Positions 18,699 to 51,083 of a stretch of DNA of 64,000 nucleotides are shown one piece after another. Within the stretch, counting starts at the first letter, position 1, and each line of letters starts with the position of its first letter. Both the position numbers and the translations under genes were made by a program. Under the pieces are notes generated by a model, which had not been told where the DNA came from, made no database searches, and saw nothing but the letters and a program-made list of their open reading frames with translations. The DNA comes from a virus, in the IMG/VR virus record IMGVR_UViG_3300033145_001156, positions 41,623-105,622 of that record; one strand, 5' to 3'.

Positions 18699-18989
18699 AT
18701 GATGAAGTGGCCGGGGATGGGTGAATATGGTGATGTCAATGAGGGAGAGGGGTCGGTTCACCTTCCGTTCACTCAGGTGGATGTGGAGTTCTTTCCGAAA
18801 CTCATGTACGGCTATAGGGGCTACACATGGCCCGACGACCTGTGTCCGCACGTGAAGGACAACAAGATTGAGCGGGTTTTGGTGCTGACCAGCCAAGACG
18901 GCTACACCGGCGCGGGGATATGCCTGGACTGCCTGATGGAGTGGGCGGAGCGGAACCGCAGCAGGATATGGAAGGGAGAAGGCGAGTGA
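18699..18989 (+). CDS. hypothetical protein
   Basis: RBS; CLDC; coupled to the glycosyltransferase. Confidence 0.55.
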   Translation: MMKWPGMGEYGDVNEGEGSVHLPFTQVDVEFFPKLMYGYRGYTWPDDLCPHVKDNKIERVLVLTSQDGYTGAGICLDCLMEWAERNRSRIWKGEGE

Positions 18990-20236
18990 AGAAGGTGGCG
19001 TTCCTGACGACGTTCTTCGAGGTCGAGAGCGGGTATTCCCTGGTGGCGGTGACGGAGACCCAGATCAGGATGCTGTTGGACCACGGGTACGAGCCGGTCG
19101 TCCTGGTGCAGGAGGACTTCAAGCCCCACGGGATGTGGGCCCCGGAGATGCTGGACGTGCGCCCCGTGATCCCCAGATTGAAGCTGACGCAGGGGGTCGC
19201 CAAGGACTTCGAGGAACGAGTGAACAGGATACAGGAGGCGCTGGAGGAGAACCTGGAGGGGGTCGACGTCTGCATCACGCAGGACATCATCCTCCAGGCA
19301 TTCTACAAGGAGCACAACGTGGCCATGAGGCGATACGCCAGGCGGCACGAGCTCCTGTGGCTGCACTGGATACACTCGTGCCCGAGCGCGGGGGACCAGG
19401 GGAAGTACCCCGGCAACTGCCGGTTCACCCCTCCCCCGGGCTACATCGTGTACCCCAACTCGTCCGATAAGTCGCTGGTGGTGGGCGCTTACGGGCTAGG
19501 CGGTCAGGAGTGGCGGGTGAAAGTGAGCAGGGCTGGCCACTCGATAGACCCGATGCTGCTGTGGCCCTACGACGAGCTGACGCGGGACCTCGTCTCCAAG
19601 TTCGCTCTCCACCAGGGGGACGTGTCCGTCGTGTACCCCGCCAGGCTGGACAGGGGGAAGCAGCCCGAGAAGATCATACGGCTGCTGGCGGGGGTCAAGA
19701 AGTTGGGCTACACCCCCAGGCTCCTGGTCATCGACTGGCAGTCGATGGGCAAGAGGTTCCAGAAATACATAGACGAGCTGCTGGAGCTGGCCAGGGAGTT
19801 GGGGCTGGAGGGGGAGGTCGCGTTCACGAGCAGGCTGGACGACAGGTGCTCCCAGGGCGTCCCGAGGAGGATCGTCGTCGAGCTGATGGACTTATCCAAC
19901 GTGTACGTCCACCCCTCTAGGGTCGAGACTTACTCGTTCGTCGTGCATGAGGCCATGCTCAGGGGCTGCCTGTGCGTCCTGAACCACGACCTGCCCATGA
20001 TGCGGGAGCTGTACGGGGACGCGGCGATATACATGGACTTCAGCAGCGACAGAATGAGTCGTAAATATCAGCCCGATGAGCAGTCGTTCTGGGACGACGA
20101 GGCCAAGAGGCTGATGGCTGAGTTGGGGCAGAACAGGGCGCTAGCGGCGAGGCAGAAGGCACGGAAGGAGTGGACGCCCCAGGCACTGTGGAAACAATTC
20201 GAGCCCCTGCTTTTCCTAATACCAGTAGGTGAATAA
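18986..20236 (+). CDS. glycosyltransferase, GT-B fold (GT4-like)
   Basis: PARLDRGKQPE, NVYVHPSRVETYSFVVHEAM (E-x7-E), N-terminal KKVAFLT. Confidence 0.85.
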   Translation: MKKVAFLTTFFEVESGYSLVAVTETQIRMLLDHGYEPVVLVQEDFKPHGMWAPEMLDVRPVIPRLKLTQGVAKDFEERVNRIQEALEENLEGVDVCITQDIILQAFYKEHNVAMRRYARRHELLWLHWIHSCPSAGDQGKYPGNCRFTPPPGYIVYPNSSDKSLVVGAYGLGGQEWRVKVSRAGHSIDPMLLWPYDELTRDLVSKFALHQGDVSVVYPARLDRGKQPEKIIRLLAGVKKLGYTPRLLVIDWQSMGKRFQKYIDELLELARELGLEGEVAFTSRLDDRCSQGVPRRIVVELMDLSNVYVHPSRVETYSFVVHEAMLRGCLCVLNHDLPMMRELYGDAAIYMDFSSDRMSRKYQPDEQSFWDDEAKRLMAELGQNRALAARQKARKEWTPQALWKQFEPLLFLIPVGE

Positions 20237-21597
20237 TGAATATCATTGTTACAGGCACTGGTCGGTGCGGTACAGGATTTATGGCCAGGTGGTTATCTAG
20301 TGCTGGTATCAAATGTACTCACGAAGGAGTGTTTAACACTAAGGGTTGGGACTACGCGCTAGAGCAGATACGGTTGCGGTTGGCCAATCCCTATTGGGGC
20401 TGGCAAGCTGATTCATCATGGCTTGCCGCTCCATGGCTAGGGCAACCAGAGCTTAAAGATATGACTGTGATTCATGTTGTGCGTCATCCCAAGCCAACTA
20501 TAGATTCGTTCTTGCGACTAATTTTGTATGCTAACAACCGACCATATTTTGACTGGGCGGCCCAGTTCCTTCCTAGATTGAGGGAACTAAATCCAGTAGA
20601 TAGTATGGTTTACTGGTATATAACTTTGAACGAGATGATAGAACCATATGCCCACTATCGACATATGGTAGAAGATAGTACCATGTCACTAGAACGGTTC
20701 TTAGGCATAGATATAGAACCTGAGAAGCTCTATAATAATACTCTATACAACACTAGGGCTGGTCTTGGCCCATCAAATATTAGACTAGAAGACATCAACT
20801 CAGAGTTAAGAGATAAGCTACTAGCCATGACAGACAAATATGGATACGAATGGGATGATGCTTTTGTACCCGAGACCATAGAGGCTACGTGGTGGGCAGG
20901 ACAATCTATATTACTAGATTCAAGATCAGGCTACCTTGGTGGTTCTTGGCAGTGGCGTGACACTAACGGAAAACCATTAGCCTATGATGGTGATCTCGTT
21001 AAGTTCTTCTATGAACAAACACTCTCAGTGGAACACCCATTCGTAGTAGACGTTGGGGCTAGCACGGGTAGCTTTACCCTGTTACCCTTGTTACATCCAA
21101 CAATGAATGTCTTGGCATTTGAACCTAACCCTATGGCATTTAGTGTGTTAGAGAGCAATATTAAATTGCATAACCTTCAAGATAGAACATCGCTGTGTCA
21201 AATAGCACTATCAGATACTAATGGAACAGGAACACTAAAGGTTCCCGAAGGCAGCACCCATATGGCTATTGGATGTTTGGGATCGCCAAGGCCACGCGGA
21301 CTTGAATGGTATGATGTGCCTGTGGAAATCAAAAGTCTAGATAGCTATAACCTCCCAGTATTAGATTTCCTTAAGATTGATACCGAGGGAAATGAACTGA
21401 ATGTTTTGAAGGGTGGCGAGGTTACAATTAAAAGGTTCTTGCCATCAATATTGCTAGAATATCAAGCACTTAATACTAGACAGTTTGGGTACGAGCCTGA
21501 GAAGATAATTGAGTTGCTAGAAAGCTGGGGTTATGACCATTTTGAACACGTAGGGATAGAGGACATCTATGTTAGTTGCGATCATAACGACTCTTGA
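20236..21597 (+). CDS. fusion of a sulfotransferase-like P-loop domain and an FkbM-family methyltransferase
   Basis: IIVTGTGRCGT, THE, HVVRHP..TIDS; then VDVGASTG, AFEPNP, FLKIDTEGNE. Confidence 0.8.
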   Translation: MNIIVTGTGRCGTGFMARWLSSAGIKCTHEGVFNTKGWDYALEQIRLRLANPYWGWQADSSWLAAPWLGQPELKDMTVIHVVRHPKPTIDSFLRLILYANNRPYFDWAAQFLPRLRELNPVDSMVYWYITLNEMIEPYAHYRHMVEDSTMSLERFLGIDIEPEKLYNNTLYNTRAGLGPSNIRLEDINSELRDKLLAMTDKYGYEWDDAFVPETIEATWWAGQSILLDSRSGYLGGSWQWRDTNGKPLAYDGDLVKFFYEQTLSVEHPFVVDVGASTGSFTLLPLLHPTMNVLAFEPNPMAFSVLESNIKLHNLQDRTSLCQIALSDTNGTGTLKVPEGSTHMAIGCLGSPRPRGLEWYDVPVEIKSLDSYNLPVLDFLKIDTEGNELNVLKGGEVTIKRFLPSILLEYQALNTRQFGYEPEKIIELLESWGYDHFEHVGIEDIYVSCDHNDS

Positions 21598-22741
21598 CAA
21601 CCTGCCCTTGCTGAAGGAGCAGATCCTCGTCCTGCGGAGCGACCCGTTCGTGGACGAGATCGTGGTAGTCAGCAATGGTTCTAATGATGGAACTAATGAA
21701 TGGTTAAAGGAGCAAGATATTATTTCTGTTATTAGGGAGAACGACGGGGCCGGGCCTGGCAGGAACGCTGGTCTTGATATGGCAGGAGAGTTCGACTACG
21801 TGCTCATGCTCGACGGCGGGATCAGGCCGCTGGTGAACGGGACGGGGCACATGCTGGACTACCTGGAGAGGCACCCCGGGGTCGACGTCCTCGGGCTGGA
21901 GGTCCCGCACTTCGAGACCGACAGGGGGAGGGCGTGGCGTAGGTGGCCTAGGCCAATAACTGACGACCAGACGTACAGGCACAGCCATCTAAGCCTCACG
22001 GCGTATTGCCTCTCGCGGGCGCGCGCGTGGGACGGGCTGAGGTTCAGCGAGGAGGGGCCGTTCGGGGAGCCCGGGTGGGGCGTGGACGATGACGAGATGG
22101 CCTGCCAATGGGCCGAGGCGGGGATAGTCCTGTACTCAGTAACTAACATCCACCCCTACAGGCGGGGGTCGGGCAGCTTCAGGAGGCTGTTCCTGGAGAC
22201 GGGCGTCTGGCCGAACCAGTACGGATCGGTATACGAGAAGAGGCTGGTCTGGATGCAGCAGAACTGGCCGCAGTACGGGCGGGGGGTGCAATGGGGAGAA
22301 CCCTGGCTTACCATCGTCGTCAAGGTCGGGGAACTGGAGGGGACGGCCAGGATCATCAAGCGCGCGCACAACATGCTGAGGAGGAGGGCGTTCGGGGAGC
22401 CGTGGGACGCCATCCCGAACCCGTACAGCATCGTGGCGTGGGACCCGACCGAGGAGTTCACGGAGTGGGCCGAGCCGAGGCGGCTGAGGCAGCACCACGG
22501 CGACAGGATCATCGTGGACGGCAGGATCGTCAGGAGGGCGACGGAGAGCGGGGAGGTCTGGACGGGCGACTTCAGGGTGTGGAAAGGAGAAGATTGGAAG
22601 GGGGCTGTGAGGCCCAACGCTCACTACCATGCATTGGTGACCAGTGAGGGAGGGTTGGAGCAGGTGCTGAAGCGATACAGTGAGATTTATCCCAGGCAGG
22701 AGAAGAACGTTTCCCCTGAAGCGAGAGAAGAGGTTGGCTAA
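21569..22741 (+). CDS. glycosyltransferase, GT-A fold (GT2-like) with C-terminal extension
   Basis: EIVVVSNGSNDGT, GPGRNAGL, YVLMLDG, GWGVDDDE. Confidence 0.85.
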   Translation: MLVAIITTLDNLPLLKEQILVLRSDPFVDEIVVVSNGSNDGTNEWLKEQDIISVIRENDGAGPGRNAGLDMAGEFDYVLMLDGGIRPLVNGTGHMLDYLERHPGVDVLGLEVPHFETDRGRAWRRWPRPITDDQTYRHSHLSLTAYCLSRARAWDGLRFSEEGPFGEPGWGVDDDEMACQWAEAGIVLYSVTNIHPYRRGSGSFRRLFLETGVWPNQYGSVYEKRLVWMQQNWPQYGRGVQWGEPWLTIVVKVGELEGTARIIKRAHNMLRRRAFGEPWDAIPNPYSIVAWDPTEEFTEWAEPRRLRQHHGDRIIVDGRIVRRATESGEVWTGDFRVWKGEDWKGAVRPNAHYHALVTSEGGLEQVLKRYSEIYPRQEKNVSPEAREEVG

Positions 22742-25700
22742 GAAGCATTTTCTGGCAGGGAGTTCAGGAGCATCCTCTAAATTTGAGTGGAATGAAGAAT
22801 GGCGTGAAATCTCAGCCAGGCGTACTCGCACGTCTAAGACAAAACACCTTCATATCAATGGAAGTCCTACTGGGAAATATGGTTGGCATGGAACCATTGG
22901 TTCAATTCACTATCAGGACGAACAAGGCGATTGGCAAGAGATTGATGCAACGTTACGGCGCATCAATAACCCCCAGCTTGATGGCTGGCTAGTTACCCAA
23001 AACGGCTGGCACTTTGCCCTGGGTAAGCCAGGTGATAAAGACGATGATGGTTGGATAGGCTTCGGTGGTAGACAGGGGGCCAACTGGCTGAAATTCCGTT
23101 TGGATAAAGTCGGCTATCTTCATTGGCCGACTAGAGACTGGCAGGATATTGGCGGTGGTCCAACCCACGACCGTGGCAAGCTCACCCAGCATACTAATAC
23201 CATGACAATCGGGCCAGAAGGAGCCGAGTCCAGTGTCAAAACCACGGGTTATGCTGAATGGACTGACCTTTGGCAAACACCAGACAATGGCGCTATTTCA
23301 GTCAAATGGCGAGTGGACGGAGAAAAGCTCAAAGAGGCTGTTACCGTTAGCCAGACGGCAAGAGAGTGGATTACAAAAAACAGACCTCCTGACACAACCC
23401 CAAGTGAAACTTACTTCGGCTTTGTCTATGAGCTTGATGTAAGCGACATCCCTAAATGGGTTAAGGGCGGTGTTTTACAAGACATTGATGCTGACTTTGA
23501 TGACGATAATAGCACAGCCAGGGTTGAACTACGCGACGCTATGGATAGGCTATTGGCCTTTCTGCCCGTCTCCTACGCTTATAGCCAAGAAGATGAACGT
23601 GGTTACCGAGAGCGCGTTGCCTTGCGCAAGCGGTTCTGGAAAGCTCCTAATGGCAAGCACTACCTCTTGGTAGGTGCGCTCGTTCCTAACTTGGCGAATC
23701 TGCCTGCTGGCGACATCATCTTCGACCCTAGCCCCTACTCAAGTGACGACCCGACAGAGGATGGATTCATTAAATATGAAAGTGGGCCAACCTATACTAG
23801 AGATAATACAGCTGATTATCTTAGATTTGGTGGTTATGGTGAATATACCATGTTTCCAACATGGTATTTTGACTACCGTGCTTATGTTGAGTGGAATATA
23901 ACTGCTCTAGCTGGAGCTACTCTGACGACGAATCCGACATTCAAGTATCAAGGAACGTTTGATAGGACCCTTAATGAAGAGATAAACCCGATTTCAAGTC
24001 AGCCAAGTGAAGCGGAAGATGCAGACCTATACGCTGACATTGCAAGTGGTACAGCTTATGTGGACCCTTGGAACTTTGCTGTTGGCACAGGGCAAGAAGA
24101 TGATTTGGGTTCTTCGGCCAAAACAGACCTCCAAAATGCTATTGATGCTTCACAGTCATGGTTCGCAATTGGTTTACAGGACCCGGTTGCCGAGGGAACG
24201 GGCGATGATGACCTTTCGAGTCGACTTTACTCCGAGAATAAGGACCCCGCCGCCGATCCGCCGCCAACGCTGTATGTAGAGTATGAAGAAGGTTCTTCAT
24301 CATCTTCATCGAGTTCTAGCTCTAGTACCTCCTCAAGCAGCACATCATCAAGTTCTACGTCAAGCTCATCTACCAGCTCAAGCTCTACTTCGTCCTCAAG
24401 CACCAGCTCATCCTCAACTTCGAGTTCCAGCACGAGTAGTAGCATCTCATCATCATCAACGTCGAGTTCTTCTACGTCATCCAGTTCGACATCCAGCAGC
24501 TCAACTTCTTCAAGCTCAACGAGCAGCTCAAGCACGTCTTCAAGTTCAACATCATCGTCAACATCAAGTAGTTCAACTTCTAGCTCTTCGACATCAAGCT
24601 CATCTACGAGCAGCAGCTCTACATCGTCTAGCAGCACGTCCAGTTCATCCACAAGTTCAAGCACGAGTTCATCTTCAACATCCAGCAGCAGTACCTCATC
24701 TTCCAGCACGTCTAGTTCATCAACGAGCTCTTCATCAACATCATCATCAAGCATATCTAGTAGTAGCACTTCGTCAAGCTCTACATCTTCTTCTAGCACA
24801 AGTTCAAGTTCTACATCCAGTTCAAGTACCAGCTCGACGTCATCGAGCACCAGTTCTTCCTCGACGAGCAGCAGTAGTATTAGCTCAAGTAGCACGTCCA
24901 GTTCAAGTACGTCTAGCAGTTCCACGTCTTCTTCGTCAACGAGTTCCACCTCGTCAAGTTCTACTTCTTCGAGTAGCAGCACTTCTTCGTCATCGACCAG
25001 CAGCAGTTCGACATCAAGTAGTTCCACCAGCTCGTCGTCCACGTCCAGCAGCACTTCGAGTTCGTCAACCAGTTCATCCAGCACGTCCAGCTCATCTACG
25101 TCGAGTAGCTCAACGAGCACCTCAAGCAGCAGCACATCCAGCTCATCGACAAGCTCTTCGACGAGTAGCAGCTCAACCTCCTCATCGTCAACGAGTTCTA
25201 GTTCAACCTCGTCGAGTTCCACGAGTTCGTCAACATCGAGCAGCAGCACTTCCTCAAGTTCCACATCTTCTTCGTCGACTAGCTCAAGCAGCACGTCTTC
25301 GAGTTCGACTTCGTCTAGTTCCACTTCGAGCACGAGTAGCAGCTCGACATCGTCTTCGAGCACGTCAAGTTCCTCGACAAGCTCAAGCTCCACGTCTAGC
25401 AGCAGCACTTCAAGCAGTTCTACATCAAGCACGAGTTCGAGCAGCACCTCGTCATCATCGACGAGTTCATCTTCAACCAGCAGCAGCACTTCGTCAAGCT
25501 CCACGTCCAGCTCTTCAACGTCATCCTCATCGACTTCAAGTTCCAGTACTTCATCATCCTCAACGTCCTCTAGCTCTACCAGTAGTACGAGTTCAAGCAG
25601 CACGTCGTCTACTTCGAGTAGTAGCACTTCCAGTTCCAGCACAAGCTCATCTTCGACGTCTAGCAGCTCTACTTCCTCTAGTTCTACATCGAGCAGCAGT

Positions 25701-26273
25701 ACATCTAGTAGTTCCACGTCGTCATCATCTACCAGCTCGTCTACAAGTTCCAGCAGCACATCGTCTAGCAGCACGAGTTCATCTTCCACATCAAGCAGCA
25801 CATCGTCGTCCTCTACGTCATCTAGCAGCACTTCCAGTTCGTCAACGAGTAGCACATCAAGCTCAAGTACAAGCAGTAGTTCAACAAGTTCAAGCAGTAC
25901 TTCATCATCTTCAACTTCCAGCTCCAGCACAAGTTCATCCTCCACGAGTAGCAGTTCCACATCATCAAGTACTTCGTCAAGTTCGACTTCAAGCGGCACG
26001 AGTTCATCTAGCACCAGTTCGTCATCCACCAGCATAAGCAGTTCAAGCTCAAGTTCGTCGTCGTCGTCAAGCAGTTCGAGCTCCTCGTACTCGGTGCCGC
26101 CGATGGAGTGCACGGCGCTGGATGTGGTGTGCGGCGCAACGACGATAACGGCGGTTGACGGTTGCGAGGGACCGATCACGACATGCATGTGCAGCGCAAC
26201 GGCGGTTGACGGTTGTGAGGGACCGATCGTGACATGCGCGTCCGGCGAGATAGAGGTAGAAGTATACGAGTAA
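22734..26273 (+). CDS. large putative virion protein: N-terminal beta-rich globular domains, ~598-aa Ser/Thr (SSSST)n tract, Cys-rich C-terminus
   Basis: Uninterrupted ORF; TTG start after GAAGAGG; IHYQD..GDWQEID..L and IIFDP motifs like WapA/RHS N-termini, followed by a DNRLRE-like segment. Confidence 0.85.
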   Translation: MAKKHFLAGSSGASSKFEWNEEWREISARRTRTSKTKHLHINGSPTGKYGWHGTIGSIHYQDEQGDWQEIDATLRRINNPQLDGWLVTQNGWHFALGKPGDKDDDGWIGFGGRQGANWLKFRLDKVGYLHWPTRDWQDIGGGPTHDRGKLTQHTNTMTIGPEGAESSVKTTGYAEWTDLWQTPDNGAISVKWRVDGEKLKEAVTVSQTAREWITKNRPPDTTPSETYFGFVYELDVSDIPKWVKGGVLQDIDADFDDDNSTARVELRDAMDRLLAFLPVSYAYSQEDERGYRERVALRKRFWKAPNGKHYLLVGALVPNLANLPAGDIIFDPSPYSSDDPTEDGFIKYESGPTYTRDNTADYLRFGGYGEYTMFPTWYFDYRAYVEWNITALAGATLTTNPTFKYQGTFDRTLNEEINPISSQPSEAEDADLYADIASGTAYVDPWNFAVGTGQEDDLGSSAKTDLQNAIDASQSWFAIGLQDPVAEGTGDDDLSSRLYSENKDPAADPPPTLYVEYEEGSSSSSSSSSSSTSSSSTSSSSTSSSSTSSSSTSSSSTSSSSTSSSSTSSSISSSSTSSSSTSSSSTSSSSTSSSSTSSSSTSSSSTSSSTSSSSTSSSSTSSSSTSSSSTSSSSTSSSSTSSSTSSSSTSSSSTSSSSTSSSSTSSSSTSSSSISSSSTSSSSTSSSSTSSSSTSSSSTSSTSSSTSSSSTSSSSISSSSTSSSSTSSSSTSSSSTSSTSSSSTSSSSSTSSSSTSSSSTSSSSTSSSSTSSSTSSSSTSSSSTSSSSTSSSSTSTSSSSTSSSSTSSSTSSSSTSSSSTSSSSTSSSSTSSSTSSSSTSSSSTSSSSTSSSSTSSSSTSSSSTSSTSSSSTSSSSTSSSSTSSSSTSSSSTSSSSTSSTSSSSTSSSSTSSSSTSSSTSSSSTSSSSTSSSSTSSSSTSSSSTSSSSTSSTSSSSTSSTSSSSTSSSSTSSSSTSSSSTSSSSTSSSSTSSSSTSSSSTSSSTSSSSTSSSSTSSSSTSSSTSSSSTSSSSTSSSSTSSTSSSSTSSSSTSSSSTSSSSTSSSSTSSSSTSSSSTSSSTSSSSTSSGTSSSSTSSSSTSISSSSSSSSSSSSSSSSSYSVPPMECTALDVVCGATTITAVDGCEGPITTCMCSATAVDGCEGPIVTCASGEIEVEVYE
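24294..26087 (+). repeat. low-complexity Ser/Thr pentapeptide repeat, codon-diversified
   Basis: 598 codons almost all Ser/Thr; all six Ser codons used, so not a perfect DNA tandem repeat. Confidence 0.95.
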
Positions 26274-26283
26274 AGGAGGTACG

Positions 26284-26568: not shown

Positions 26569-26582
26569 GGAGACGGGCGGGT

Positions 26583-26612
26583 TTGCCATCGTCGGCGTAG
26601 GTGTGGTATAAT
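26583..26612 (+). promoter_or_regulatory. sigma70-type promoter upstream of portal
   Basis: TTGCCA, 18 nt, extended -10 TGgTATAAT. Confidence 0.65.
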
Positions 26613-26623
26613 AGGGGAACGAG

Positions 26624-28198: not shown

Positions 28199-28403
28199 AT
28201 GATCGGCTACATCCCGTGTTACGACAAGATGAGTGACGATGCGGTGGTCGAGAAATATCTCAGGGTCGATACCGACAAACTATGGGCCGGGATGACTGAT
28301 GATGAGTTCTGGGCTACGACGAGATGGGTGCTGCCAGGACTTTGCGCAAAGCGCAAGAAAAGAGATTTAGGTGGCCTTACGAGCTGCCGGAAAGGGACGG
28401 GGG

Positions 28404-33705: not shown

Positions 33706-33742
33706 AGGCCGGAGAGCCCTTTTCTCCGGCCTTTTGCGTTTT
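33706..33742 (+). terminator. intrinsic terminator/attenuator in the capsid-operon leader
   Basis: Stem AGGCCGGAGA/TCTCCGGCCT, 7-nt loop, TTTGCGTTTT tail, just before the RBS of 33753. Confidence 0.65.
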
Positions 33743-33752
33743 GGAGGTGGAC

Positions 33753-42871: not shown

Positions 42872-43698
42872 GGATCCTGGTGACGGGTGACGCCGGTTGG
42901 CTCGGCGGGCACATCTCCAACCATCTGGAGGGCGAGGGGCACGTGGTCGTCGGTTTCGACCTCCTGCCGGGCGACAGGATGGTCGGCGACCTCGTTGACT
43001 TGAAGCCCGAGCACCTAGAGGGGATCGAGGCGGTCGTCCACTGCGCGGCCATCGGTGACGTGTACGTGGCGAACAGGAACCCCGCACTGGCGTTCAAGGC
43101 GTCGGCTGAGGGCACGGCGGCCCTGGTGGCGGCCTGCCCAGAGGACCTGAGGGTGTTCGTCCACATCAGCACGTGGGAGGTCTACGGGCCTCATTCTCCT
43201 CACATCGAGGTCTTGGAGACGTCCCAGTGCAGGCCGGAGCACCCCTATGCCGCCGCGAAGCGCGCTGGGGAACTGGCGCTGGTGAGCACGATCAGGACGC
43301 CGTGGCGCATCCTGAGGCTGGGGAGCGCGTACGGGCACGGGATGAGGGAGAGCTCGCTAATCTCCAGGTTCATCGAGAAGATGAGGAGCGGGGAGCCGCT
43401 GACCATTCACGACGACGGGAAGCAGTTCAGGCAGTGGGTGTGGACGGGGGACATGTGCAGAGCAGTCAGTTCAGCACTGGGGGATGTCCCGAACGGGGTG
43501 TACAACGTCGTCGGGAGCGAGGCTGTCACCGTGCTGGGGCTAGCGGAGATGCTGGGCGGAGAGATCGTCCACCAGGAGCGGAGGAAGTCAGAAACGCCGT
43601 GCTACCTGGTGTCGGGGGCCAAGGCGAAGTTCTGGCTCAGGTGGGAGCCGGAGAAGGGATTCAAGGAAGGGGTGGCAGAGATTGTACGGAGCACGTGA
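42868..43698 (+). CDS. NAD-dependent sugar epimerase/dehydratase (extended SDR)
   Basis: ILVTGDAGWLG, HISTWEVYG, YAAAK catalytic motif. Confidence 0.9.
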   Translation: MRILVTGDAGWLGGHISNHLEGEGHVVVGFDLLPGDRMVGDLVDLKPEHLEGIEAVVHCAAIGDVYVANRNPALAFKASAEGTAALVAACPEDLRVFVHISTWEVYGPHSPHIEVLETSQCRPEHPYAAAKRAGELALVSTIRTPWRILRLGSAYGHGMRESSLISRFIEKMRSGEPLTIHDDGKQFRQWVWTGDMCRAVSSALGDVPNGVYNVVGSEAVTVLGLAEMLGGEIVHQERRKSETPCYLVSGAKAKFWLRWEPEKGFKEGVAEIVRST

Positions 43699-44218
43699 CC
43701 CGGGGAAGCACAGGGAGTCCCTCGTGAGGCTGGTGAGGGAGTCCGGCGCAAGGAACATCGCGGAGGTGGGCGTCTACAAGTGCGCGACCTCGCTGGCGGT
43801 CCTGATGAACTGCGACGTGGACAGGTACTACATGGTCGACCCCTGGAGGGACTACTGGGACTCCGGGGACGGGGAGGCGGACCGGGGCTCCCCGAAGGAC
43901 GTGGACTGGGAGGCCCTGTTCAAGGGTGCACTGGAAGTGGAGCAGCGGTTCACCGTGGCGGAAGTCTTGAGGCTCCCGTCGGTCAGCGCGGCGAAGATGT
44001 TCTACCCCGGGGAGCTGGACCTGGTGTTCATAGACGGCGACCACTCCTACGAGGGTGCGAGGGCGGACATAGAAGCGTGGACACCGGCGGTGAAGGAGGG
44101 CGGGATCCTGTCGGGGCACGACTACTACACGAGGTGGCCGGGAGTCGTCAGGGCGGTCGACGAGGCGTTCGGAGACTTGCACTTCATGAAAGACACGGTG
44201 TGGTGGACTCAATTATAG
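43682..44218 (+). CDS. class I SAM methyltransferase (Methyltransf_24-like)
   Basis: AEVGVY, VDPW, DLVFIDGDHSYE, GGILSGHDY. Confidence 0.85.
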   Translation: MYGARDPGKHRESLVRLVRESGARNIAEVGVYKCATSLAVLMNCDVDRYYMVDPWRDYWDSGDGEADRGSPKDVDWEALFKGALEVEQRFTVAEVLRLPSVSAAKMFYPGELDLVFIDGDHSYEGARADIEAWTPAVKEGGILSGHDYYTRWPGVVRAVDEAFGDLHFMKDTVWWTQL

Positions 44219-44841
44219 TCTACACGGCGATAATAGGCGACATAGACGACCTGTTGCCAACGAGGACAGGAGGGGTAGCATGGGTTGATGTCCGAAAAAG
44301 AAGAAGCCCAGGGTGGGCGATAAGGCAAGCAAGAAGGCAGTTGACAGACCCGAGAAGGGAGTCTCGGCTGTACAAGATACTGAGCCACCAGTGGATACCG
44401 GGGACGAGCATCTGGATAGACGGGACGATCCAGTTGAAGGTGAGTCCAAGGGAGTTGGCGCAGTACCTTGGGGAGAATGACATGGCGGCGTTCCGGCACC
44501 CGTCGAACGACTGCGCCCTGAGGGAGGCCGAGATAGTCGCCAGGGTGGGGAAGGCGACCGAAGAAGCGTTGAGGCAGGCCGAGAGGTACAGGGAGGCCGG
44601 ATTCCCGGAGCACCACGGGATGATGGCTTGCGGGGTTCTGATCCGCAGGCACACCGAGGCAGTAGAACGATTCAACGACATGTGGTGGAGCGAGTATTGT
44701 CGAGGATGCGTCAGGGACCAAGTGAGCTTCAACTATGTGTTGTGGAAGTTGGACATGAAGTGCAGCGTGATTCCGGGTGACTCGTACAACAACAGGTTCA
44801 TACGAAAGGTGTCACATGTCAAACCGACGGGTTACGGCTAG
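44200..44841 (+). CDS. DUF616/MUCI70-like glycosyltransferase
   Basis: VYTAIIG..D.L, KILSH, SIWIDG, FRHP..DC..EA, RDQVSF.YVLW. Confidence 0.75.
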   Translation: MVDSIIVYTAIIGDIDDLLPTRTGGVAWVDVRKRRSPGWAIRQARRQLTDPRRESRLYKILSHQWIPGTSIWIDGTIQLKVSPRELAQYLGENDMAAFRHPSNDCALREAEIVARVGKATEEALRQAERYREAGFPEHHGMMACGVLIRRHTEAVERFNDMWWSEYCRGCVRDQVSFNYVLWKLDMKCSVIPGDSYNNRFIRKVSHVKPTGYG

Positions 44842-45577
44842 GGAAGTATTTTGCCAGGTTCAGGGGCACATGACGACCGGAGAGGGATACTCGGTCATCC
44901 GGCTGGGCGACGGGGAGTGCCGGTTGATGGGCTGGCCCGACAGGACCCCGAGGAGGGAACTCCAGCAATCATTGAGGTACTGGTTCGGGCATACGGACTT
45001 CAGCCGGGAAGACGTGGACGCGATGGCGAACCTCCTGAGGCAGGCGATAGCGGTTGCCGACGTGGTGGGGGTCCCGGGCAAGGAGCAGCTGGCTGACGGG
45101 CGCAAGGGCTGGGCGAACGTGGAGAGGTACCTGGACGAATATCATCTGCTGGACGAGGACGCGTGGCTGTGCGACAACGAGCTGCACATCCGGATGGCCG
45201 AGCAGGGGCTGTACGAGGAGCTGCTGCTGGGACTCCCTGACATTAGCATCATCACTTGCAGGGACGTCGGGTTCCTGATGGAGTCGTTCTTCAGGATCGG
45301 GGCGGTCACAGTCTACGAGGTTCCTGCCGAGGCGCAGACAGCCGGGTGGAAGCCGACGAGCCACTGGCCGGACAGGTTCGACGAGTTGTACAAGGAGGTC
45401 GAGGTCACGTATCCTGGCCAACTGTTCCTGGTAGCCGCCGGGCCGCTGGGCAAGGTGTACTGCCAGTGGGTGAAGGAGCGGGGCGGGGTGGCCCTGGATG
45501 CAGGCTCGATCTTAGATGGCTGGGTCGGGATACGGAGCAGGACGTACCTCAAGGAGAGGGACTACTCGCTATGCTGA
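44816..45577 (+). CDS. GT-D-fold-like glycosyltransferase
   Basis: SVIRLGDGE motif, ADVVG, LVAAGPLGK, ALDAGS..D. Confidence 0.65.
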   Translation: MSNRRVTAREVFCQVQGHMTTGEGYSVIRLGDGECRLMGWPDRTPRRELQQSLRYWFGHTDFSREDVDAMANLLRQAIAVADVVGVPGKEQLADGRKGWANVERYLDEYHLLDEDAWLCDNELHIRMAEQGLYEELLLGLPDISIITCRDVGFLMESFFRIGAVTVYEVPAEAQTAGWKPTSHWPDRFDELYKEVEVTYPGQLFLVAAGPLGKVYCQWVKERGGVALDAGSILDGWVGIRSRTYLKERDYSLC

Positions 45578-46209
45578 AGGTGTCGGTGGACCTGGACAAG
45601 TGGTTGGATGAGTACCCGTGGTACCGGGACGTGCTGGACGTCCTCGACGACTACCAGGAGGGGCCTGAGACGGCTGCCCTCTGGACGCCGTGGAAGGGCG
45701 GGCTGTGGATGAAGGAGCGGGTCTGCGAGATCGCGGAAGTGTGCGCGGAGAGGTTCCCTGGGGACTTCATCGAGATCGGGGCCTACCTGGGGCAGACCAC
45801 GAGGGGGCTGGCGGAGGTGGCCAGGGAGCACGACCGGCGGGTGGTGGTGATAGACCCGTGGGACCCGGACTCGCTGTGTTGCCAGGGCTGGGAGTACAAC
45901 GTGTTCCTGCGCAGCATCAGGGGGTACTCGGACATCATAGACGTCTACCGGCTGTCTTCGTTCGAGGACGAAGCCATCGAGATCATCGAGGGCAGGGAGC
46001 TCGCGTTCGCGTTCGTGGACGGGCTGCACATCTACGAGGCGGCGCTGTCGGACATCAAGGCATGCGCGCACTGCCATGGGGTCATAGCCGTGGACGACCT
46101 GCCGAACTGCATTGACGTGTGGGACGCGTTCATGGAGGGCGTCGAGGTGACTAGGAGGGTTCCGTTGTGGAGGAAGTATCATCGTGAAGGCTATCTATTG
46201 CCACGTTGA
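45571..46209 (+). CDS. class I SAM methyltransferase
   Basis: IEIGAYLG.TT, IDPW, FAFVDGLH.YE, VDD. Confidence 0.8.
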   Translation: MLKVSVDLDKWLDEYPWYRDVLDVLDDYQEGPETAALWTPWKGGLWMKERVCEIAEVCAERFPGDFIEIGAYLGQTTRGLAEVAREHDRRVVVIDPWDPDSLCCQGWEYNVFLRSIRGYSDIIDVYRLSSFEDEAIEIIEGRELAFAFVDGLHIYEAALSDIKACAHCHGVIAVDDLPNCIDVWDAFMEGVEVTRRVPLWRKYHREGYLLPR

Positions 46210-46786
46210 ACCGCCGGAAGTTGACATCATAATACCAACGCTGAATTTCAGGGCAGCATTAGACAACTATCACGGTTGGCCCGATCCTGGCGTGGAAACT
46301 TGGTGGTTGACAGTCATGGTAGATGAAAAACAAGAAGGGTTCACTCGGACAGTCAACCGTGGACTTGCCGAGACGAAGTCTCCGTACATCTGTATTATAG
46401 GGGACGACGCGGTCCCAGAGACCGAGGGTTGGCTGTTAGAACTGAGGAAGGCGCTGGAGGAGGGGTACGGGTTCGCGTTCCCGACCATGCCTTGCAGGAC
46501 GGCTCCCATATCGAAGGCGAGGAGGGCGTCCCCGACAGGGCAGTTGGTGGAGATACCCCACGGGCCTTACGGGTGCGTCCTGATGAAGAGAGAAGTCTTG
46601 GGGGAGGTCGGGCTGCTGGACGAGGCGTTCGCGCACTACGGGTCGGATGTTGACCACCAGAGGCGATCTAGTTTCAAGTCGGTGTGGGTTGCGCACGTGT
46701 ACGTCCGCAGGGAGCTGCACGAGCCGAGGGAACCCTGGTGGACGGAGGACGGGATAAAATTCCGTGAAAGGTGGGGAGATCGATGA
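46184..46786 (+). CDS. glycosyltransferase GT2-like
   Basis: VDIIIPT, GFTRTVNRGL, IGDDA, VGLLDEAF.HYGSDVD. Confidence 0.85.
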   Translation: MKAIYCHVEPPEVDIIIPTLNFRAALDNYHGWPDPGVETWWLTVMVDEKQEGFTRTVNRGLAETKSPYICIIGDDAVPETEGWLLELRKALEEGYGFAFPTMPCRTAPISKARRASPTGQLVEIPHGPYGCVLMKREVLGEVGLLDEAFAHYGSDVDHQRRSSFKSVWVAHVYVRRELHEPREPWWTEDGIKFRERWGDR

Positions 46787-46937: not shown

Positions 46938-47774
46938 ATGATGAGGATTGGGTGGATTTTTGATCAGGCGCTATCGCTCCACACGGGCGGGCAGATGCTT
47001 TCCAGCAGGCTGCTGCTGAGGAGGTCACCAGGCTGGGCCGACGTGAAGGTCATATCGCCGTACCACGACAGTTGGCTGGGCGAGTGCGACGCATACATCG
47101 TGAACCAGTGCCGGTACTTCAGGCCCGACCAGTTGGCGAGGATCATGGAGAAGCCGTACATCTGGCTGTTCCACGACGCGCTGCACAACTGTATGCACCA
47201 GGGGTTCATCCTGAAGGCGCTGCTGAGGAAGGCGACGGGCTGCATGTTCAAGTCGCCTTCCCACCAGGAGAACGTGTGCGGCAAGTGGCCGGAAGCGAAG
47301 GAAGTCCCCGGGAAAGCGGTCTACGCGACGCCGATAGACCTGGACATGTTCTACCCGGGGGAGAAGACGAGAGGCACGATCTGGCTGGGGAACTACGTGC
47401 CGGAGAAAGGCGTGAGAGAGGCCGTCGCGTGGGCCGAGGAGAACGAGGAGGTCGTGGACTTCTTCGGGTTCGGGGACGCGTTCATGTTCAGGATAGCCAG
47501 CCCCTGGGCCAGGTTCTATCCGGTGCTGCCCTACAGGGAGGTGCCGCAGATCCTCAGGCGGTACGAGAGGCTGGTGTTCCTGCCCAAGTGCCCAGAGGCC
47601 GCCGGTCGGGTGGTGGTGGAGGCGCTGCTGTCGGGCTGCGAGGTGGTCACCAACGACATGATCGGGTTCAAGTCGTTCGACTGGTGGTCGGACGAGCCAG
47701 GGACTTTGCGCAAAGCGCTGAGGGAGCGAGAGGGGGAATTCTGGGAGACGGTCAAGGAGATGTTAGATGGATAA
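46938..47774 (+). CDS. glycosyltransferase GT4-like
   Basis: GG.LS, EKG, FLPKCPEAAGRVVVEALLSGC. Confidence 0.8.
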   Translation: MMRIGWIFDQALSLHTGGQMLSSRLLLRRSPGWADVKVISPYHDSWLGECDAYIVNQCRYFRPDQLARIMEKPYIWLFHDALHNCMHQGFILKALLRKATGCMFKSPSHQENVCGKWPEAKEVPGKAVYATPIDLDMFYPGEKTRGTIWLGNYVPEKGVREAVAWAEENEEVVDFFGFGDAFMFRIASPWARFYPVLPYREVPQILRRYERLVFLPKCPEAAGRVVVEALLSGCEVVTNDMIGFKSFDWWSDEPGTLRKALREREGEFWETVKEMLDG

Positions 47775-48345
47775 AGAATATCCGGTAGGGGTTGCCTACC
47801 AAGAAGGCCCAGGTCACACGGGGCTTGCTGGTATGCATGGGGGGAGTGATCCTGGGTTAGGTTCTATAGGTGGACCAAGCGGCGGTCCACCAGCTACGGA
47901 AGAACAAACCAATTATGTTAAGAGACTACTTTTCAAACAATCAGATACGGAAATGATGCAATCTCTAGGTTCTGGCCAACGTTTGGAGAATGGTTTTCTC
48001 TACTACAAGACTATGGATAAGCGTCCTGAGGGGTTTTGGGATTTGTCGCGTAGGGAAGCGGGAAAAGCAGGGGTTGTACTTGGTGCACGTTATATAAAAT
48101 GGCGGAATTCGATAGATGTTTCAAAAATGAGCAAAGCACAAGCATCCACTTTTTTGGATTCAGCAACTAACCGTTTAGGTGGTTCGCTACAGGGATTTGT
48201 CAGATTGCAAACAGGAGGAAGTCGACAAAGTACCGATAGGTATTTTCAAGGGTTAGTGAATGAAACGCGAACTTATATAAAGAAGTATCCTGATGGTGAG
48301 GAAATGAGAAAGGCTCTTGGAAAAAGTTATGGGTTCGGTAGATGA
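47767..48345 (+). CDS. hypothetical protein with YPVGVAYQE leader (candidate internal capsid protein)
   Basis: AAGGAG RBS; AT-rich; Gly-rich GHTG..G.HGGS segment. Confidence 0.6.
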   Translation: MDKEYPVGVAYQEGPGHTGLAGMHGGSDPGLGSIGGPSGGPPATEEQTNYVKRLLFKQSDTEMMQSLGSGQRLENGFLYYKTMDKRPEGFWDLSRREAGKAGVVLGARYIKWRNSIDVSKMSKAQASTFLDSATNRLGGSLQGFVRLQTGGSRQSTDRYFQGLVNETRTYIKKYPDGEEMRKALGKSYGFGR

Positions 48346-48966: not shown

Positions 48967-48974
48967 GAGGGGAG

Positions 48975-49184
48975 ATGAAGTACCCTGTTGGAGTAACATA
49001 CCAAGAAGCGGAGACGAAGGGTAGGATGGGCGGGGAGAAGGCGCAGGGGCCGGGAGGGTTCTGCGTGTGCCCCGAATGCGGGGAGGAGATCCCCCACGAG
49101 ACGGGGAAGCCATGCTTCGGCGAGGAGTGCCCGGAGTGCGGAGCCAAGATGACGGCCAAGGGCGGAAAAGAGGAAGCTAAATAG
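48975..49184 (+). CDS. small Cys-rich metal-binding protein with YPVGVTYQE leader
   Basis: GPGGFCVCPECG...H..G.PC....CPECGAKM; AGGAGG RBS. Confidence 0.7.
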   Translation: MKYPVGVTYQEAETKGRMGGEKAQGPGGFCVCPECGEEIPHETGKPCFGEECPECGAKMTAKGGKEEAK

Positions 49185-49609
49185 TGATCTCCGTCGTGCA
49201 GGTCCTCCGCACTTGGCTGCTCCTACAGCCTCTCATCATACCGCAGGTCGGGATGAAGATATGGGGGATGCCGGGGATACCCTCTGGTGAAGTTAACAAC
49301 ATGCCGCAGAAGGCTATCACGATGTATCAGAACCCTGGGACGGGCAGGTGGGGGGTCCCACTCTACAACGCATCCATCCAGTTCAGATGCTACGGGGCGA
49401 CGTCGTGGGAGGCAGAGGAGGTCTGGGGGGCGCTGTACGACACACTCCACAGGGTGAACTGCATCAACGTCACCATCGGGGCTGATGACTATACCATATA
49501 CGTCTCGCAGTTGGGGAGCGGGCCGACTGAGCAGCAAGAGCCGCTGACTGACTGGCCGTTCCAGCTCGCATCATTTTCATTTATAGCCTGCGAGAGCACG
49601 ATGCCTTGA
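49184..49609 (+). CDS. tail terminator / tail completion protein
   Basis: IQFRCYG.T..EAE.V...L...L; position. Confidence 0.7.
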   Translation: MISVVQVLRTWLLLQPLIIPQVGMKIWGMPGIPSGEVNNMPQKAITMYQNPGTGRWGVPLYNASIQFRCYGATSWEAEEVWGALYDTLHRVNCINVTIGADDYTIYVSQLGSGPTEQQEPLTDWPFQLASFSFIACESTMP

Positions 49610-49653
49610 TATTATCATACCTATAAGTGTAGACAATTCAAGAGGAGGGATAT

Positions 49654-50145
49654 ATGTTCGAGCAGTTAGTAATGGGAGTTAGCAAGCACCACGGGGCGTT
49701 CGTCGCGAGGATCAAAGGGCAGAAGCTACTCCAGGTCGGCACGGCGTCCAGGGGCGCGTTCGCTGAGTGGTTCCGGCGGCGAGGCAGGGAGGTCGAGGTC
49801 GATGGGGAGGGTGAGTACGACGCAGCGTACTCGCAGGGATTACTAGATGGGATGAACGAGGAGGACGTCGCGAAGCTGGTCAAGAAAGTCTTGGGACAAG
49901 CACCGGTGTTCGTGTCCTCGGTTCCTTCTCCCAAGTGGCGGCACACGAACGTGAGGCGCATGGCGGCGGACTACGAGCGAATCCTGAGCAAGTTCAAGAT
50001 CGAGGCGTTCGCGTACTGGGGTGGCAGGATGCTATGCGTCGTGGCGAAGAAAAAGAAGAGGCGGGTCGCCAAGGCAGAAGTTGTCAAGACGGAACCAGTC
50101 AGGACAGAAGAGAAGCATGACTTCTCGGAATGGAGGAGTGGATGA
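49654..50145 (+). CDS. degenerate methyltransferase-like protein
   Basis: LLQVGTA, YDAAYSQGLL, SVPS; GAGGAGG RBS. Confidence 0.5.
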   Translation: MFEQLVMGVSKHHGAFVARIKGQKLLQVGTASRGAFAEWFRRRGREVEVDGEGEYDAAYSQGLLDGMNEEDVAKLVKKVLGQAPVFVSSVPSPKWRHTNVRRMAADYERILSKFKIEAFAYWGGRMLCVVAKKKKRRVAKAEVVKTEPVRTEEKHDFSEWRSG

Positions 50146-51083
50146 TACTCCAGGTAGGCATGACGTCGTTCTCGCCGCAGCATGGCTACGGGAGGATAGA
50201 GGAACCCATGGTTGACGCGCTAGCGGCGGCTGGCGCGACCATCCTGAAAGACCATGAATTCGGCTGGAATTATAGACTTTTATGGGGTTATCCCCATGCA
50301 TATATTATTTCTAAGAGCGGTTACGGTGATGACATCATACTTCATACCATGTTCGAGTTCCCGACCTTGCCCAAGCATTGGCCCGGTTTGTACAACCGGT
50401 ACCGCTTGCTGTGGTTGCCGACGACTTGGTGCGAGGAGGTCTACAGGGACAACGGTGTGACAGCCGACATCATGGTGAGCGGCTACGGGATAGACGAGGA
50501 AGACTTCCCGGAGCTGACAAGGGAGCGGGAGGCGCACGACCACCCGTTCACGTTCCTGGCGGTGGGGCACCAGTTCACCGACAGGAAGGGTTCGCACCTG
50601 GCGCTGGAGGCATTCATGAAGTTGGGGCTGAAGGACGCCAGGCTGCTGCTCAAGATCCGGGACCCGATGGTCAAGAGCATCTCCGGGGATTTCAAGGGAG
50701 AGGTCGTGGTCGTCGGCGGGTTCCTGGGCAACAACGACTACTGGAACCTGCTCGCCATGAGTGATGTGCTCGTCTACCCCCACTGGGGGGAGGGGTTCGG
50801 GCTGATCCCCTTGGAGTACGGTCGGACGGGACTACCAGGGATCGTCACCGACTACTCAGGGCCGAGGGACTACCTGAACGACGAGTGTTGGCTGAGGTTG
50901 GAGATGAGGAAGGGCAAGCCCGACGTGGAGCAGCTGATGGCGCAGATGCTCTGGTGTTATGAGCACCAGGACGACGTGCGCCGGATGGGGCGGAGCGCCG
51001 CGAAGTACGTGGCCGAGGAATACACGTGGGAGGCTTCCGGGCGCAAGGCGTATCGGAAGCTGAAGGAAAAACTAGGAGGTTAA
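50142..51083 (+). CDS. glycosyltransferase GT4-like
   Basis: GYG, TMFE, FTFLAVG..DRKG, DVLVYPHWGEGFGLIPLE. Confidence 0.88.
   Translation: MILQVGMTSFSPQHGYGRIEEPMVDALAAAGATILKDHEFGWNYRLLWGYPHAYIISKSGYGDDIILHTMFEFPTLPKHWPGLYNRYRLLWLPTTWCEEVYRDNGVTADIMVSGYGIDEEDFPELTREREAHDHPFTFLAVGHQFTDRKGSHLALEAFMKLGLKDARLLLKIRDPMVKSISGDFKGEVVVVGGFLGNNDYWNLLAMSDVLVYPHWGEGFGLIPLEYGRTGLPGIVTDYSGPRDYLNDECWLRLEMRKGKPDVEQLMAQMLWCYEHQDDVRRMGRSAAKYVAEEYTWEASGRKAYRKLKEKLGG

Follow-up and report, generated by a model that had tools for sequence, protein, structure and literature searches.

What a tailed phage does with a set of glycan-building genes interleaved with those of its virion, and which molecule receives the sugars, is the question raised by a stretch of viral DNA of 64,000 nucleotides (the window; positions 41,623 to 105,622 of IMG/VR record IMGVR_UViG_3300033145_001156). 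Three glycosylation loci lie within its morphogenesis region, as an earlier note on this DNA had described and as Pfam matches confirm. The first of them, here termed cassette 1, consists of a GT-B glycosyltransferase (GT4a), a protein in which a sulfotransferase-fold domain is fused to an FkbM-type methyltransferase (ST::FkbM), a GT-A glycosyltransferase (GT2a) and a fibre protein with a long stalk made almost entirely of serine and threonine. Comparison of related sequences makes it rather probable that the enzymes of cassette 1 O-glycosylate, and perhaps methylate and sulfate, this mucin-like virion fibre.

The evidence that carries this reading is the company kept by the two glycosyltransferases (GTs). 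IMG/VR was searched with profiles of GT4a and GT2a only (alignments A5 and A6); every locus with the pair found by this enzyme-only retrieval had a long Ser/Thr tract nearby, and four further lineages were obtained. The pair is now present in six lineages, namely the window, G001/L113 (with L128), G002/L114, G003/L027, L129 and L132, and in all six an open reading frame (ORF) with a Ser/Thr tract of 54 to 600 residues is adjacent or at most 2.5 kb away. By the same criterion no tract was found in 19 cassette-free loci of the fibre family (305 kb) or in 80 metagenome loci (697 kb), the latter being unrelated FkbM-containing loci from a scan with the ST::FkbM profile. Fisher's exact test gave p = 2e-7 when the 99 controls were set against just the four lineages that enzyme sequence had retrieved. 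The lineages are otherwise dissimilar, with large terminases (terL) of 26% identity, a GC content of 0.44–0.56 and the cassette placed before terL, before the portal gene or in the tail-tip module. Furthermore, the heads of the tract proteins vary (GalM/CBM96, LamG, DUF7483), and L114, L129 and L132 lack the head domain found in the window; the constant partner of the enzymes is thus the Ser/Thr tract and not the head.

That the four genes form a unit is evident from IMG/VR contig L001, the portal of which is 89% identical to that of the window. L001 matches the window up to position 18971 and again from 26602, with 20 nt in between, and is devoid of GT4a, ST::FkbM, GT2a and the fibre together. 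These junctions show that the four genes of cassette 1 are jointly present or absent, as one block of 7.6 kb. The proposal of the earlier note that locus 1 serves the Ser/Thr-rich protein is therefore supported twice, by the linkage to tracts and by this clean insertion or deletion; the lack of co-occurrence between Ser-rich ORFs and GT clusters in related phages, which the note had named as refuting, was not seen. Its description of a protein with about 600 Ser/Thr residues directly after the locus also agrees with what was found, and its placement of the locus between terL and portal is right with the qualification that terL lies 5 kb upstream, with small Cys-rich ORFs between. The GC content within the cassette is mosaic (GT4a 0.62, ST::FkbM 0.43, GT2a 0.62, fibre head 0.49), which suggests that the fusion gene and the fibre body derived from a low-GC phage such as G001 (GC 0.44).

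G001/L113, a 50-kb contig with which the fragment L128 from another sample was grouped, carries the same four genes in the same order, followed by terL; its enzymes are 87, 72 and 74% identical to those of the window and its terL 26%. The head of its fibre is 38% identical and is joined to about 420 residues of almost pure serine, for which all six Ser codons are mixed. In G002/L114 (94 kb, CheckV 100%) the order is tape measure, an 874-aa protein, GT4, a beta-helix protein, a polySer protein, a GT2-containing protein and a LamG protein; the tract ORFs are a 499-aa protein that is 81% Ser/Thr and the LamG protein, which is at least 1177 aa long and contains several polySer linkers. G003/L027 has a Dit-like gene, GT4, GT2 and a fibre; this fibre, just 3' of the Dit-like gene, combines a GalM-like domain, CBM96, about 70 residues of polySer and a Sipho_Gp37/Tal domain (PF14594, 2e-23). 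In L129, tape measure and BNR propeller genes are followed by GT4, a sulfotransferase-domain::GT2 fusion, a beta-helix protein and a tract protein of 1263 aa (tracts of 54 and 122 aa), and in L132 a GT4::GT2 fusion precedes an ORF with a Ser/Thr tract that is cut off by the end of the contig. The cassette is downstream of the tape measure gene in L114 and L129, and, judged from domain content such as the Tal fusion in L027, the fibre is a virion component in relatives. The three fusions, GT4::GT2 in L132, sulfotransferase-domain::GT2 in L129 and ST::FkbM in the window, indicate that the enzymes work in one pathway.

Beta-helix proteins were seen to accompany the GT4-GT2 cassette at L113:6118-7566 (47% identical in G001), L114:12159-13532 and L129:11083-13152. 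A further member of the fibre family, L024, has a tract of about 580 aa of the type SPSxS and is placed after terL and portal, with two GT2 genes following. Among the neighbours of 17 fibre-family members that are not Ser-rich, 2 of 115 ORFs match the GT1 family.

The stalk of the window fibre (residues 538–1136) comprises 476 Ser, 117 Thr, 4 Ile and 2 Gly, mostly arranged as SSSST pentads. Its 98 SSSST units are spelled by 97 distinct 15-mers, with all six Ser codons in use, so that the repeat exists at the protein level only; Tandem Repeats Finder detected no DNA array across the tract. Exact DNA repeats within the 1797-nt tract reach 18 nt at most, against 18.9 ± 2.1 under synonymous shuffling; as none exceeds the shuffle expectation, selection has acted on the amino-acid sequence, and the tract did not arise by recent slippage. 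A single frame spans the conserved globular head, the tract and the Cys-rich end. Two alternative frames through the tract, a 584-aa ORF on the + strand and a 653-aa ORF on the - strand, were dismissed as side effects of the Ser codons. Tracts of this kind are also present in contigs assembled independently from further samples, and on this ground an assembly artefact was rejected.

In front of the stalk, the N-terminal 519 residues of the fibre match no Pfam or PHROG family; 537 representative homologs of the head were found in metagenomes, 209 of them below 1e-30. The first ~320 residues are conserved among them and the C-terminal parts are highly variable and often repetitive. An AlphaFold model of the head, built with 52 homologs (predicted local distance difference test, pLDDT, 83.8; predicted template modelling score, pTM, 0.82), shows two domains. 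The first is predicted to resemble LacZ domain 5, GalM and the N-domain of GH97 (VIA Z 10–11 over ~210 residues), a likeness of fold only, in which sense the name galactose-mutarotase-like is used here. The second is a carbohydrate-binding module (CBM) of the CBM96 type, with matches to 8wab (Z 12.9, 166 aa aligned, root-mean-square deviation 3.9) and 7vbo (Z 11.0) at a Foldseek probability of 1.00; one fibre homolog matches PF24517 CBM96. The 61-aa C-terminus, with its duplicated AVDGCEGPI(T/V)TC motif, had no usable match in the Atlas and may be an anchor. With regard to the homologs, in P0001 (781 aa) the conserved head domain is followed by a Hint/intein-like segment (CFVEETRILMADG...). 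P0004 and P0029 bear signal peptides and P0127 is fused to a membrane GT2 synthase, from which it follows that the head domain also occurs in cellular surface proteins.

Concerning the two transferases, GT4a probably starts at ATG 18968 (the listed ORF begins at 18920), as homologs align from residue 20–24. Its homologs in L113, L114, L027 and L129 are 87, 63, 61 and 53% identical, and none was found among 50,697 GenBank phage records. GT2a carries a conserved C-terminal extension of ~250 aa and is 74, 56, 54, 46 and 45% identical to its homologs in L113, L129, L027, L132 and L114. Sequence and profile searches of the PDB returned no significant chain for either enzyme, and no solved protein O-glycosyltransferase; the best profile matches were at noise level (GmaR, E 0.22; GalT1 of the Fap1 pathway, E 0.3). 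In the same searches GtfA was not returned for GT4a, and no ppGalNAc-T (GT27) chain was obtained for GT2a at E ≤ 1. Because of this the type of acceptor is unreadable from homology.

The FkbM part of ST::FkbM is readily recognised (PF05050, 1.2e-18; TIGR01444, 3e-23), and for residues 1–~210 no Pfam sulfotransferase model matches. An AlphaFold2 model of this domain (pLDDT 86.1) retrieved from the PDB with Foldseek a top ~35 matches that are all sulfotransferases using 3'-phosphoadenosine 5'-phosphosulfate (PAPS), among them 3-OST-1, Cpz8, curacin ST and TPST (probability 1.0, TM scores 0.36–0.55). Its nearest Atlas clusters are viral proteins of the 'sulfotransferase family' (score 0.95), and the homolog P0175 matches PF13469. 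Across 26 homologs R83, P85 and S91 are invariant and G7, G9 and R10 of GTGRCGTG nearly so, with Arg at the position in the 5'-phosphosulfate-binding (5'-PSB) loop that is usually Lys. The R83..S91 spacing agrees with that of the canonical 3'-phosphate-binding R-x7-S motif; G7-x-G9-R10 and R83/P85/S91 presumably sit where the PAPS phosphates bind, that is, in the 5'-PSB and 3'-phosphate-binding (3'-PB) motifs. A metagenome scan with the ST::FkbM protein found nothing. Of the 'methylated and possibly sulfated' glycan of the earlier note, the folds and motifs (FkbM, two Methyltransf_24 domains, the sulfotransferase fold and its R..P.....S motif) carry the wording as far as 'possibly sulfated' and no further.

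Beyond cassette 1, the virion module contains in total 7 glycosyltransferase-like genes, 4 methyltransferases, 1 nucleoside diphosphate (NDP)-sugar epimerase/reductase and 1 sulfotransferase-fold domain (Table 1). The count of about seven GTs made beforehand holds for GT-like genes, of which five, between terL and the major tail protein, pass the Pfam cut-off; one of the seven is weak and one is short. No equivalog of NCBIfam lies above its cut-off for any of the glyco enzymes. All are co-oriented with the structural genes and, since no transmembrane segment is seen in any, they are predicted to be soluble and cytoplasmic. The labels 'MTase-like' for 49654-50145 and 'gp10-like' for 47767-48345 had to be dropped, as neither product matches a family.

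Table 1. Positions of cassette 1, the parts of its fibre, the other glycosylation genes and structural landmarks in the window
Feature	Position	Strand	Match or remark
Large terminase terL	12242-13795	+	phrog_2, 9.5e-27; landmark outside the glycan system
GT4a, GT-B glycosyltransferase	18968-20236	+	PF00534, 4.4e-10; first gene of cassette 1
ST::FkbM fusion	20236-21597	+	sulfotransferase-fold aa 1-~210; FkbM S-adenosylmethionine methyltransferase aa 272-433
GT2a, GT-A glycosyltransferase	21569-22741	+	PF00535, 4.5e-9
Fibre protein, 1197 aa	22680-26273 (start 22680 or 22734)	+	directly 3' of GT2a
Fibre N-terminal conserved domain, galactose-mutarotase-like beta-supersandwich (predicted)	22734-23741	+	residues ~57-336
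Fibre CBM96-type carbohydrate-binding module	23751-24290	+	residues ~340-519
Fibre 599-aa (SSSST)n stalk	24291-26087	+	residues 538-1136; proposed O-glycosylation substrate
Fibre Cys-rich C-terminus, 61 aa	26088-26273	+	duplicated motif
Portal	26624-28198	+	phrog_10963, 6e-32; landmark
HslV-family peptidase-like gene	28371-28940	+	directly 3' of portal
Methyltransferase between portal and protease	32541-33617	+	Methyltransf_11 at aa 240-320; PF08241, 1.3e-12
Prohead protease-like gene	33734-35419	+
Major capsid protein	36863-38038	+	PF25209, 1.2e-36; possible substrate
Head-tail adaptor	42434-42871	+	weak match
SDR-type NDP-sugar epimerase, dehydratase or reductase (locus 2)	42868-43698	+	PF01370, 2.5e-37; RmlD_sub_bind, 9e-24
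Methyltransf_24 methyltransferase (locus 2)	43682-44218	+	PF13578, 1.3e-14
TOD1/MUCI70 (DUF616) glycosyltransferase-like (locus 2)	~44188-44841	+	PF04765, 2.2e-17, aa 187-327 of long ORF
GT-D-fold-like protein (locus 2)	44816-45577	+	PF22882, 1.3e-10, above cut-off; NF040628, 2e-5, below cut-off
Second Methyltransf_24 methyltransferase (locus 2)	45571-46209	+	PF13578, 3.3e-10; start inferred from sequence
Short GT2-like protein, 200 aa (locus 2)	46184-46786	+	PF00535, 3.4e-6, profile positions 55-129 only
Weak GT1/GT4-like protein (locus 2)	46938-47774	+	PF00534, E 5e-3, 16.8 bits, below cut-off
Tail terminator	49184-49609	+
163-aa protein, conserved GT4c partner (locus 3)	49654-50145	+	no family match
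GT4c glycosyltransferase (locus 3)	50130-51083	+	PF00534, 2.5e-13; directly 5' of major tail protein
Major tail protein	51088-51636	+	phrog_885, 2e-5; possible GT4c substrate
Tape measure protein, 1712 aa	52403-57541	+

In locus 2 the DUF616 gene is listed from 43780; however, the first ~135 codons of that ORF look non-coding (Arg/Gly-rich) and overlap the Methyltransf_24 gene in another frame. Whether the methyltransferase between portal and protease belongs to the glycan system is uncertain. In locus 3 the major tail protein has a Ser-rich loop, DVSSDVSSEVMGSVVGASSS (aa 88–107). A scan of contig genomes gave two loci only, both on contigs of metagenome-assembled genomes (MAGs) with phage-like gene content. 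In the MAG contig L006, with gene content of this kind, the order of the window is kept, with an ORF like that at 49654 (34%), GT4c (33%) and the major tail protein (29%, E 3e-23), and the major tail proteins of both keep a D(V/L)SSD(V/A)SSE loop. Homologs of GT4c with 26–27% identity over 94–99% of its length are found in 148 GenBank phage records, mostly of large Streptomyces phages, and also in the Rhodococcus phages Peregrin (gp60) and Grayson (gp62), for which possible virion glycosylation was proposed by their describers (PMC13313380). Glycosylation of the tail tube by GT4c is thus a reasonable suggestion from gene order and homology. IMG/VR searches with the major tail protein or the adaptor gave no close relative covering loci 2 and 3, and a composition check revealed no Ser/Thr-rich segment in the major capsid protein. 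For the coating of capsid and tail that the earlier note envisaged, the synteny of GT4c with the major tail protein and the homology of GT4c to actinophage enzymes are hints only, and joint action of loci 2 and 3 with cassette 1 on one glycan likewise found no support beyond hints.

These comparisons establish which genes are present, their folds, the mobility of the cassette, its co-occurrence with tracts and the fusion of its enzymes. Cassette 1 would, in the mechanism proposed here, be a self-contained and horizontally mobile module for a mucin-like glycoprotein fibre. Late in infection the 1197-aa fibre would be translated in the host cytoplasm, where soluble GT4a would start O-linked glycosylation on the hydroxyl groups of the (SSSST)n stalk and GT2a would extend the glycan, both drawing on host nucleotide sugars. 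ST::FkbM may then cap the glycan with sulfate, taken from host PAPS, and/or with O-methyl groups. The outcome would be a stiff, hydrated bottle-brush stalk, some 100–200 nm long at the ~0.25 nm per residue of mucin domains, displaying the two-module sugar-binding head at its N-terminal end, and the head may give the first contact with host capsule, exopolysaccharide (EPS) or another polysaccharide. Loci 2 and 3 would probably contribute additional transferases and a sugar that is rare or methylated, with either this glycan or other proteins of the virion as a possible target; for the tail tube, GT4c is the best candidate. We infer the enzyme activities, the acceptor, the order of the steps, the attachment of the fibre to the virion of the window phage and the function of the fibre from comparison alone. 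Tentatively, and with slightly more doubt than trust, we extend the proposal to a dedicated and hitherto undescribed protein O-glycosylation system of uncultured tailed phages, in which a mobile GT4-GT2 cassette, with or without sulfotransferase and methyltransferase, together with polySer/Thr-tract proteins would convert proteins of the fibre and the tail tip into mucin-like bottle-brushes of at least 100 nm that bear sulfate or methyl groups, a viral counterpart of mucins and of serine-rich repeat protein (SRRP) adhesins, for long-range capture of polysaccharides or for shielding. A 'glycocalyx' over the whole virion, loci 2 and 3 included, is a speculative hypothesis that we regard as doubtful.

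Several points weigh against glycosylation of the fibre by cassette 1. The evidence is all comparative, and no glycan, glycopeptide or enzyme activity was observed. GT4a and GT2a lack a significant match to any solved protein O-glycosyltransferase, the window fibre has no recognisable virion-anchor domain and its 61-aa C-terminus is without relatives, and the absence of the block from L001 means that the cassette is dispensable for making the basic virion. The genes of loci 2 and 3, save for weak Methyltransf_24 matches, are not common to other cassette-bearing phages, and a link of these loci to the fibre is unsupported. The polyserine linkers of bacterial carbohydrate-active enzymes (CAZymes), ~40 residues long and joining CBMs to catalytic domains in Saccharophagus, Teredinibacter and Cellvibrio, are plain spacers without known dedicated glycosyltransferases (PMC2699552). 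By analogy the stalk could be a very long, unglycosylated flexible spacer, with the transferases acting on other virion proteins (capsid, tail tube or beta-helix fibres) and linked to it through a shared receptor-binding accessory module. The tract proteins here likewise bear CBM or LamG modules, a beta-helix protein is also found with the cassette in L113, L114 and L129, and GT4c adjoins the major tail protein in two distant phages. However, the GT4-GT2 pair follows the tract, and not any one head or genome position, in six of six lineages against none of 99 controls; tracts of 400–600 residues are about ten times longer than the CAZyme linkers, and a mere spacer would have no need of strict SSSST periodicity, which makes this explanation unlikely.

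Soluble phage glycosyltransferases that alter polymers of the host surface are well known, as in the gtr operons of P22 and SfX and in staphylococcal TarP. On this precedent the enzymes could remodel surface glycans of the host (lipopolysaccharide, capsule, teichoic acid or S-layer glycan), whether in an infection or in the lysogenic state, and so block superinfection or the trapping of virions on debris, with the fibre unrelated. The nearest NCBIfam names for GT4a and GT2a are indeed exopolysaccharide enzymes (VpsD, EpsD), far below cut-off, and a Glyco_hydro_cc hydrolase is also among the genes of the phage. The ORFs examined, on the other hand, include no flippase, GtrA/GtrB-type component, priming transferase or membrane protein, and the enzymes of the cluster lack transmembrane segments; the genes are embedded among co-oriented late structural genes rather than forming a moron next to an integrase or with a promoter of its own, and both the linkage to Ser/Thr tracts and the Tal fusion of L027 would be left unexplained. 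Action on the host surface is accordingly judged quite improbable. Phage glycosyltransferases acting on DNA also exist, and transfer of sugars to bases of the phage DNA, as with T4 glucosyl-hmC or YerA41-type modified thymidine, would serve to evade restriction. In a non-exhaustive survey, the large ORFs of the rest of the genome gave DNA methylases (C5 cytosine and ParB-N6/N4), a DnaB helicase, a primase, an AAA_24 ATPase and a DUF5131 protein, but no hydroxymethylase or thymidylate-synthase-like enzyme, and the C5 cytosine methylase implies ordinary cytosine as its substrate. As the glycosyltransferases are found in virion modules and not beside replication genes, and as their linkage to Ser/Thr-tract proteins would again have no explanation, modification of DNA is extremely improbable. 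Glycosylation of the fibre stalk thus stays the preferred reading.

The window is the last 64 kb of a virus record of 105,622 bp. The ends of the record share a repeat of 114 bp, and the phage genome is therefore complete and either circularly permuted or terminally redundant. The + strand carries all substantial genes of the window, tightly packed, and across the glyco loci the ends of neighbouring genes overlap or abut by a few bases, an arrangement consistent with co-transcription of the glyco genes with the late genes. The nearest cultured relatives of the capsid protein, from Methanoculleus viruses and from Streptomyces and Arthrobacter phages, are just 29–34% identical, and the distant capsid relatives L003–L005 have no glyco genes in common with the window. 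At the capsid gene, about 1 kb (L002:827-1805 vs window 37341-37344) interrupts the gene of a relative (83% aa identity) and is absent from the window; this is probably an intron, intein or homing-endonuclease insertion. The HslV-like gene is 69% identical to L001 at the nucleotide level, below the conservation of portal. Of the small Cys-rich ORFs (CxxC-type) that fill 14004-18989, from terL to cassette 1, several are paralogous and are also present in L001 in a different order. A palindrome, CTTTGCGCAAAG, was found with at most one mismatch at 13 sites between 1082 and 63687, where 0.11 would be expected; several of these sites coincide with or adjoin gene junctions, those at 18168, 18593 and 28340 flank cassette 1 and none is within it. 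The best sigma-70-like promoter match in 18–27 kb (26583-26612, TTGCCA-18-TATAAT with an upstream TG, 11/12) lies immediately 5' of the portal start, across the right junction of the cassette. Elsewhere in the window are a LAGLIDADG homing-endonuclease-like gene (3956-4747), a C5 cytosine DNA methylase (10530-11573), a LamG lectin-like protein and a right-handed beta-helix protein between capsid and connector genes (39018-40916) and an HTH-HNH endonuclease inside the head-tail joining genes (41517-42434). The Glyco_hydro_cc glycoside hydrolase (2.6e-21; G000:C1:1527-2744), maybe a depolymerase or lysin, is encoded near the genome start, outside the window.

In a literature search, no phage was found described that encodes a mucin-like acceptor together with a mobile GT4-GT2(-sulfotransferase/methyltransferase) cassette dedicated to it, and no example of a sulfated mucin-like phage glycoprotein turned up. 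New here are the 7.6-kb cassette, the co-occurrence of the GT4-GT2 pair with tracts in six lineages, the enzyme fusions and the head-polySer-Tal fusion in a relative. If the stalk is glycosylated, virion glycosylation by phages would extend past a few actinophage capsids to a modular, horizontally traded system with a purpose-built acceptor, and the fibre would give bacterial viruses their first mucin-like glycoprotein, which may be sulfated. Such fibres would alter the understanding of adsorption range, particle hydrodynamics, adherence to mucus or EPS and shielding from immune factors or proteases, and the compact soluble enzymes with their simple (SSSST)n acceptor would be of use in glyco-engineering. 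The cassette is small, with three enzymes and a tract, so that the claim is directly testable in E. coli.

Among known systems, a few mycobacteriophages (Che8, Corndog and Myrna) are established cases in which glycosyltransferases of the phage glycosylate the virion (Freeman et al. 2023, Cell Host Microbe 31:1216, as cited in PMC12363180 and PMC11256854). The system proposed here, from genes alone, is of the same type in that soluble phage-encoded GTs, in some actinophages together with methyltransferases, would modify the phage's own virion proteins in the cytoplasm, and GT4c has its homologs in Streptomyces and Rhodococcus phages. In the mycobacteriophages, however, the acceptors are ordinary capsid and tail-tube subunits, whereas here a dedicated 599-aa mucin-like stalk on a separate fibre is proposed; the toolkit is also larger, with seven GT-like genes and a sulfotransferase-fold domain, and GT4a is without a GenBank phage homolog. 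The polyserine linkers of CAZymes from Saccharophagus, Teredinibacter and Cellvibrio, which average 39–44 residues (Howard et al. 2004; PMC2699552), are similar in that near-pure serine joins CBMs to other domains, as the tracts of L114 and L027 also act as inter-domain linkers. The phage tracts differ from them in their length of 54 to 600 residues, in the strict SSSST of the window and in their consistent linkage to the GT4-GT2 pair.

Giant viruses decorate their surface fibrils, as in Mimivirus and with Vp54 of PBCV-1, by virus-encoded, host-independent cytoplasmic GTs, sugar-modifying enzymes and methyltransferases. They resemble the present case by description; they are viruses of eukaryotes with unrelated structural proteins and have no mucin-like Ser/Thr tract as acceptor. 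In the SRRP adhesins Fap1, GspB, SraP and PsrP, a long Ser-rich stalk and a binding region are encoded beside cytoplasmic GT-B, GT-A and GT-D enzymes (GtfA/B, GalT, dGT1), and the stalk is decorated in the cytoplasm before export or assembly. The window likewise has a long Ser-rich repeat tract beside a binding region, encoded next to GTs. In contrast to the SRRPs, the enzymes are not detectably homologous (even GalT1 matches at noise level), the fibre lacks a signal peptide, a hydrophobic N-terminus and LPXTG, and no Sec component (SecA2/SecY2/Asp) is found among the neighbouring genes; the binding head is N-terminal and of the GalM/CBM96 type, and the carrier would be a virus particle instead of a cell wall.

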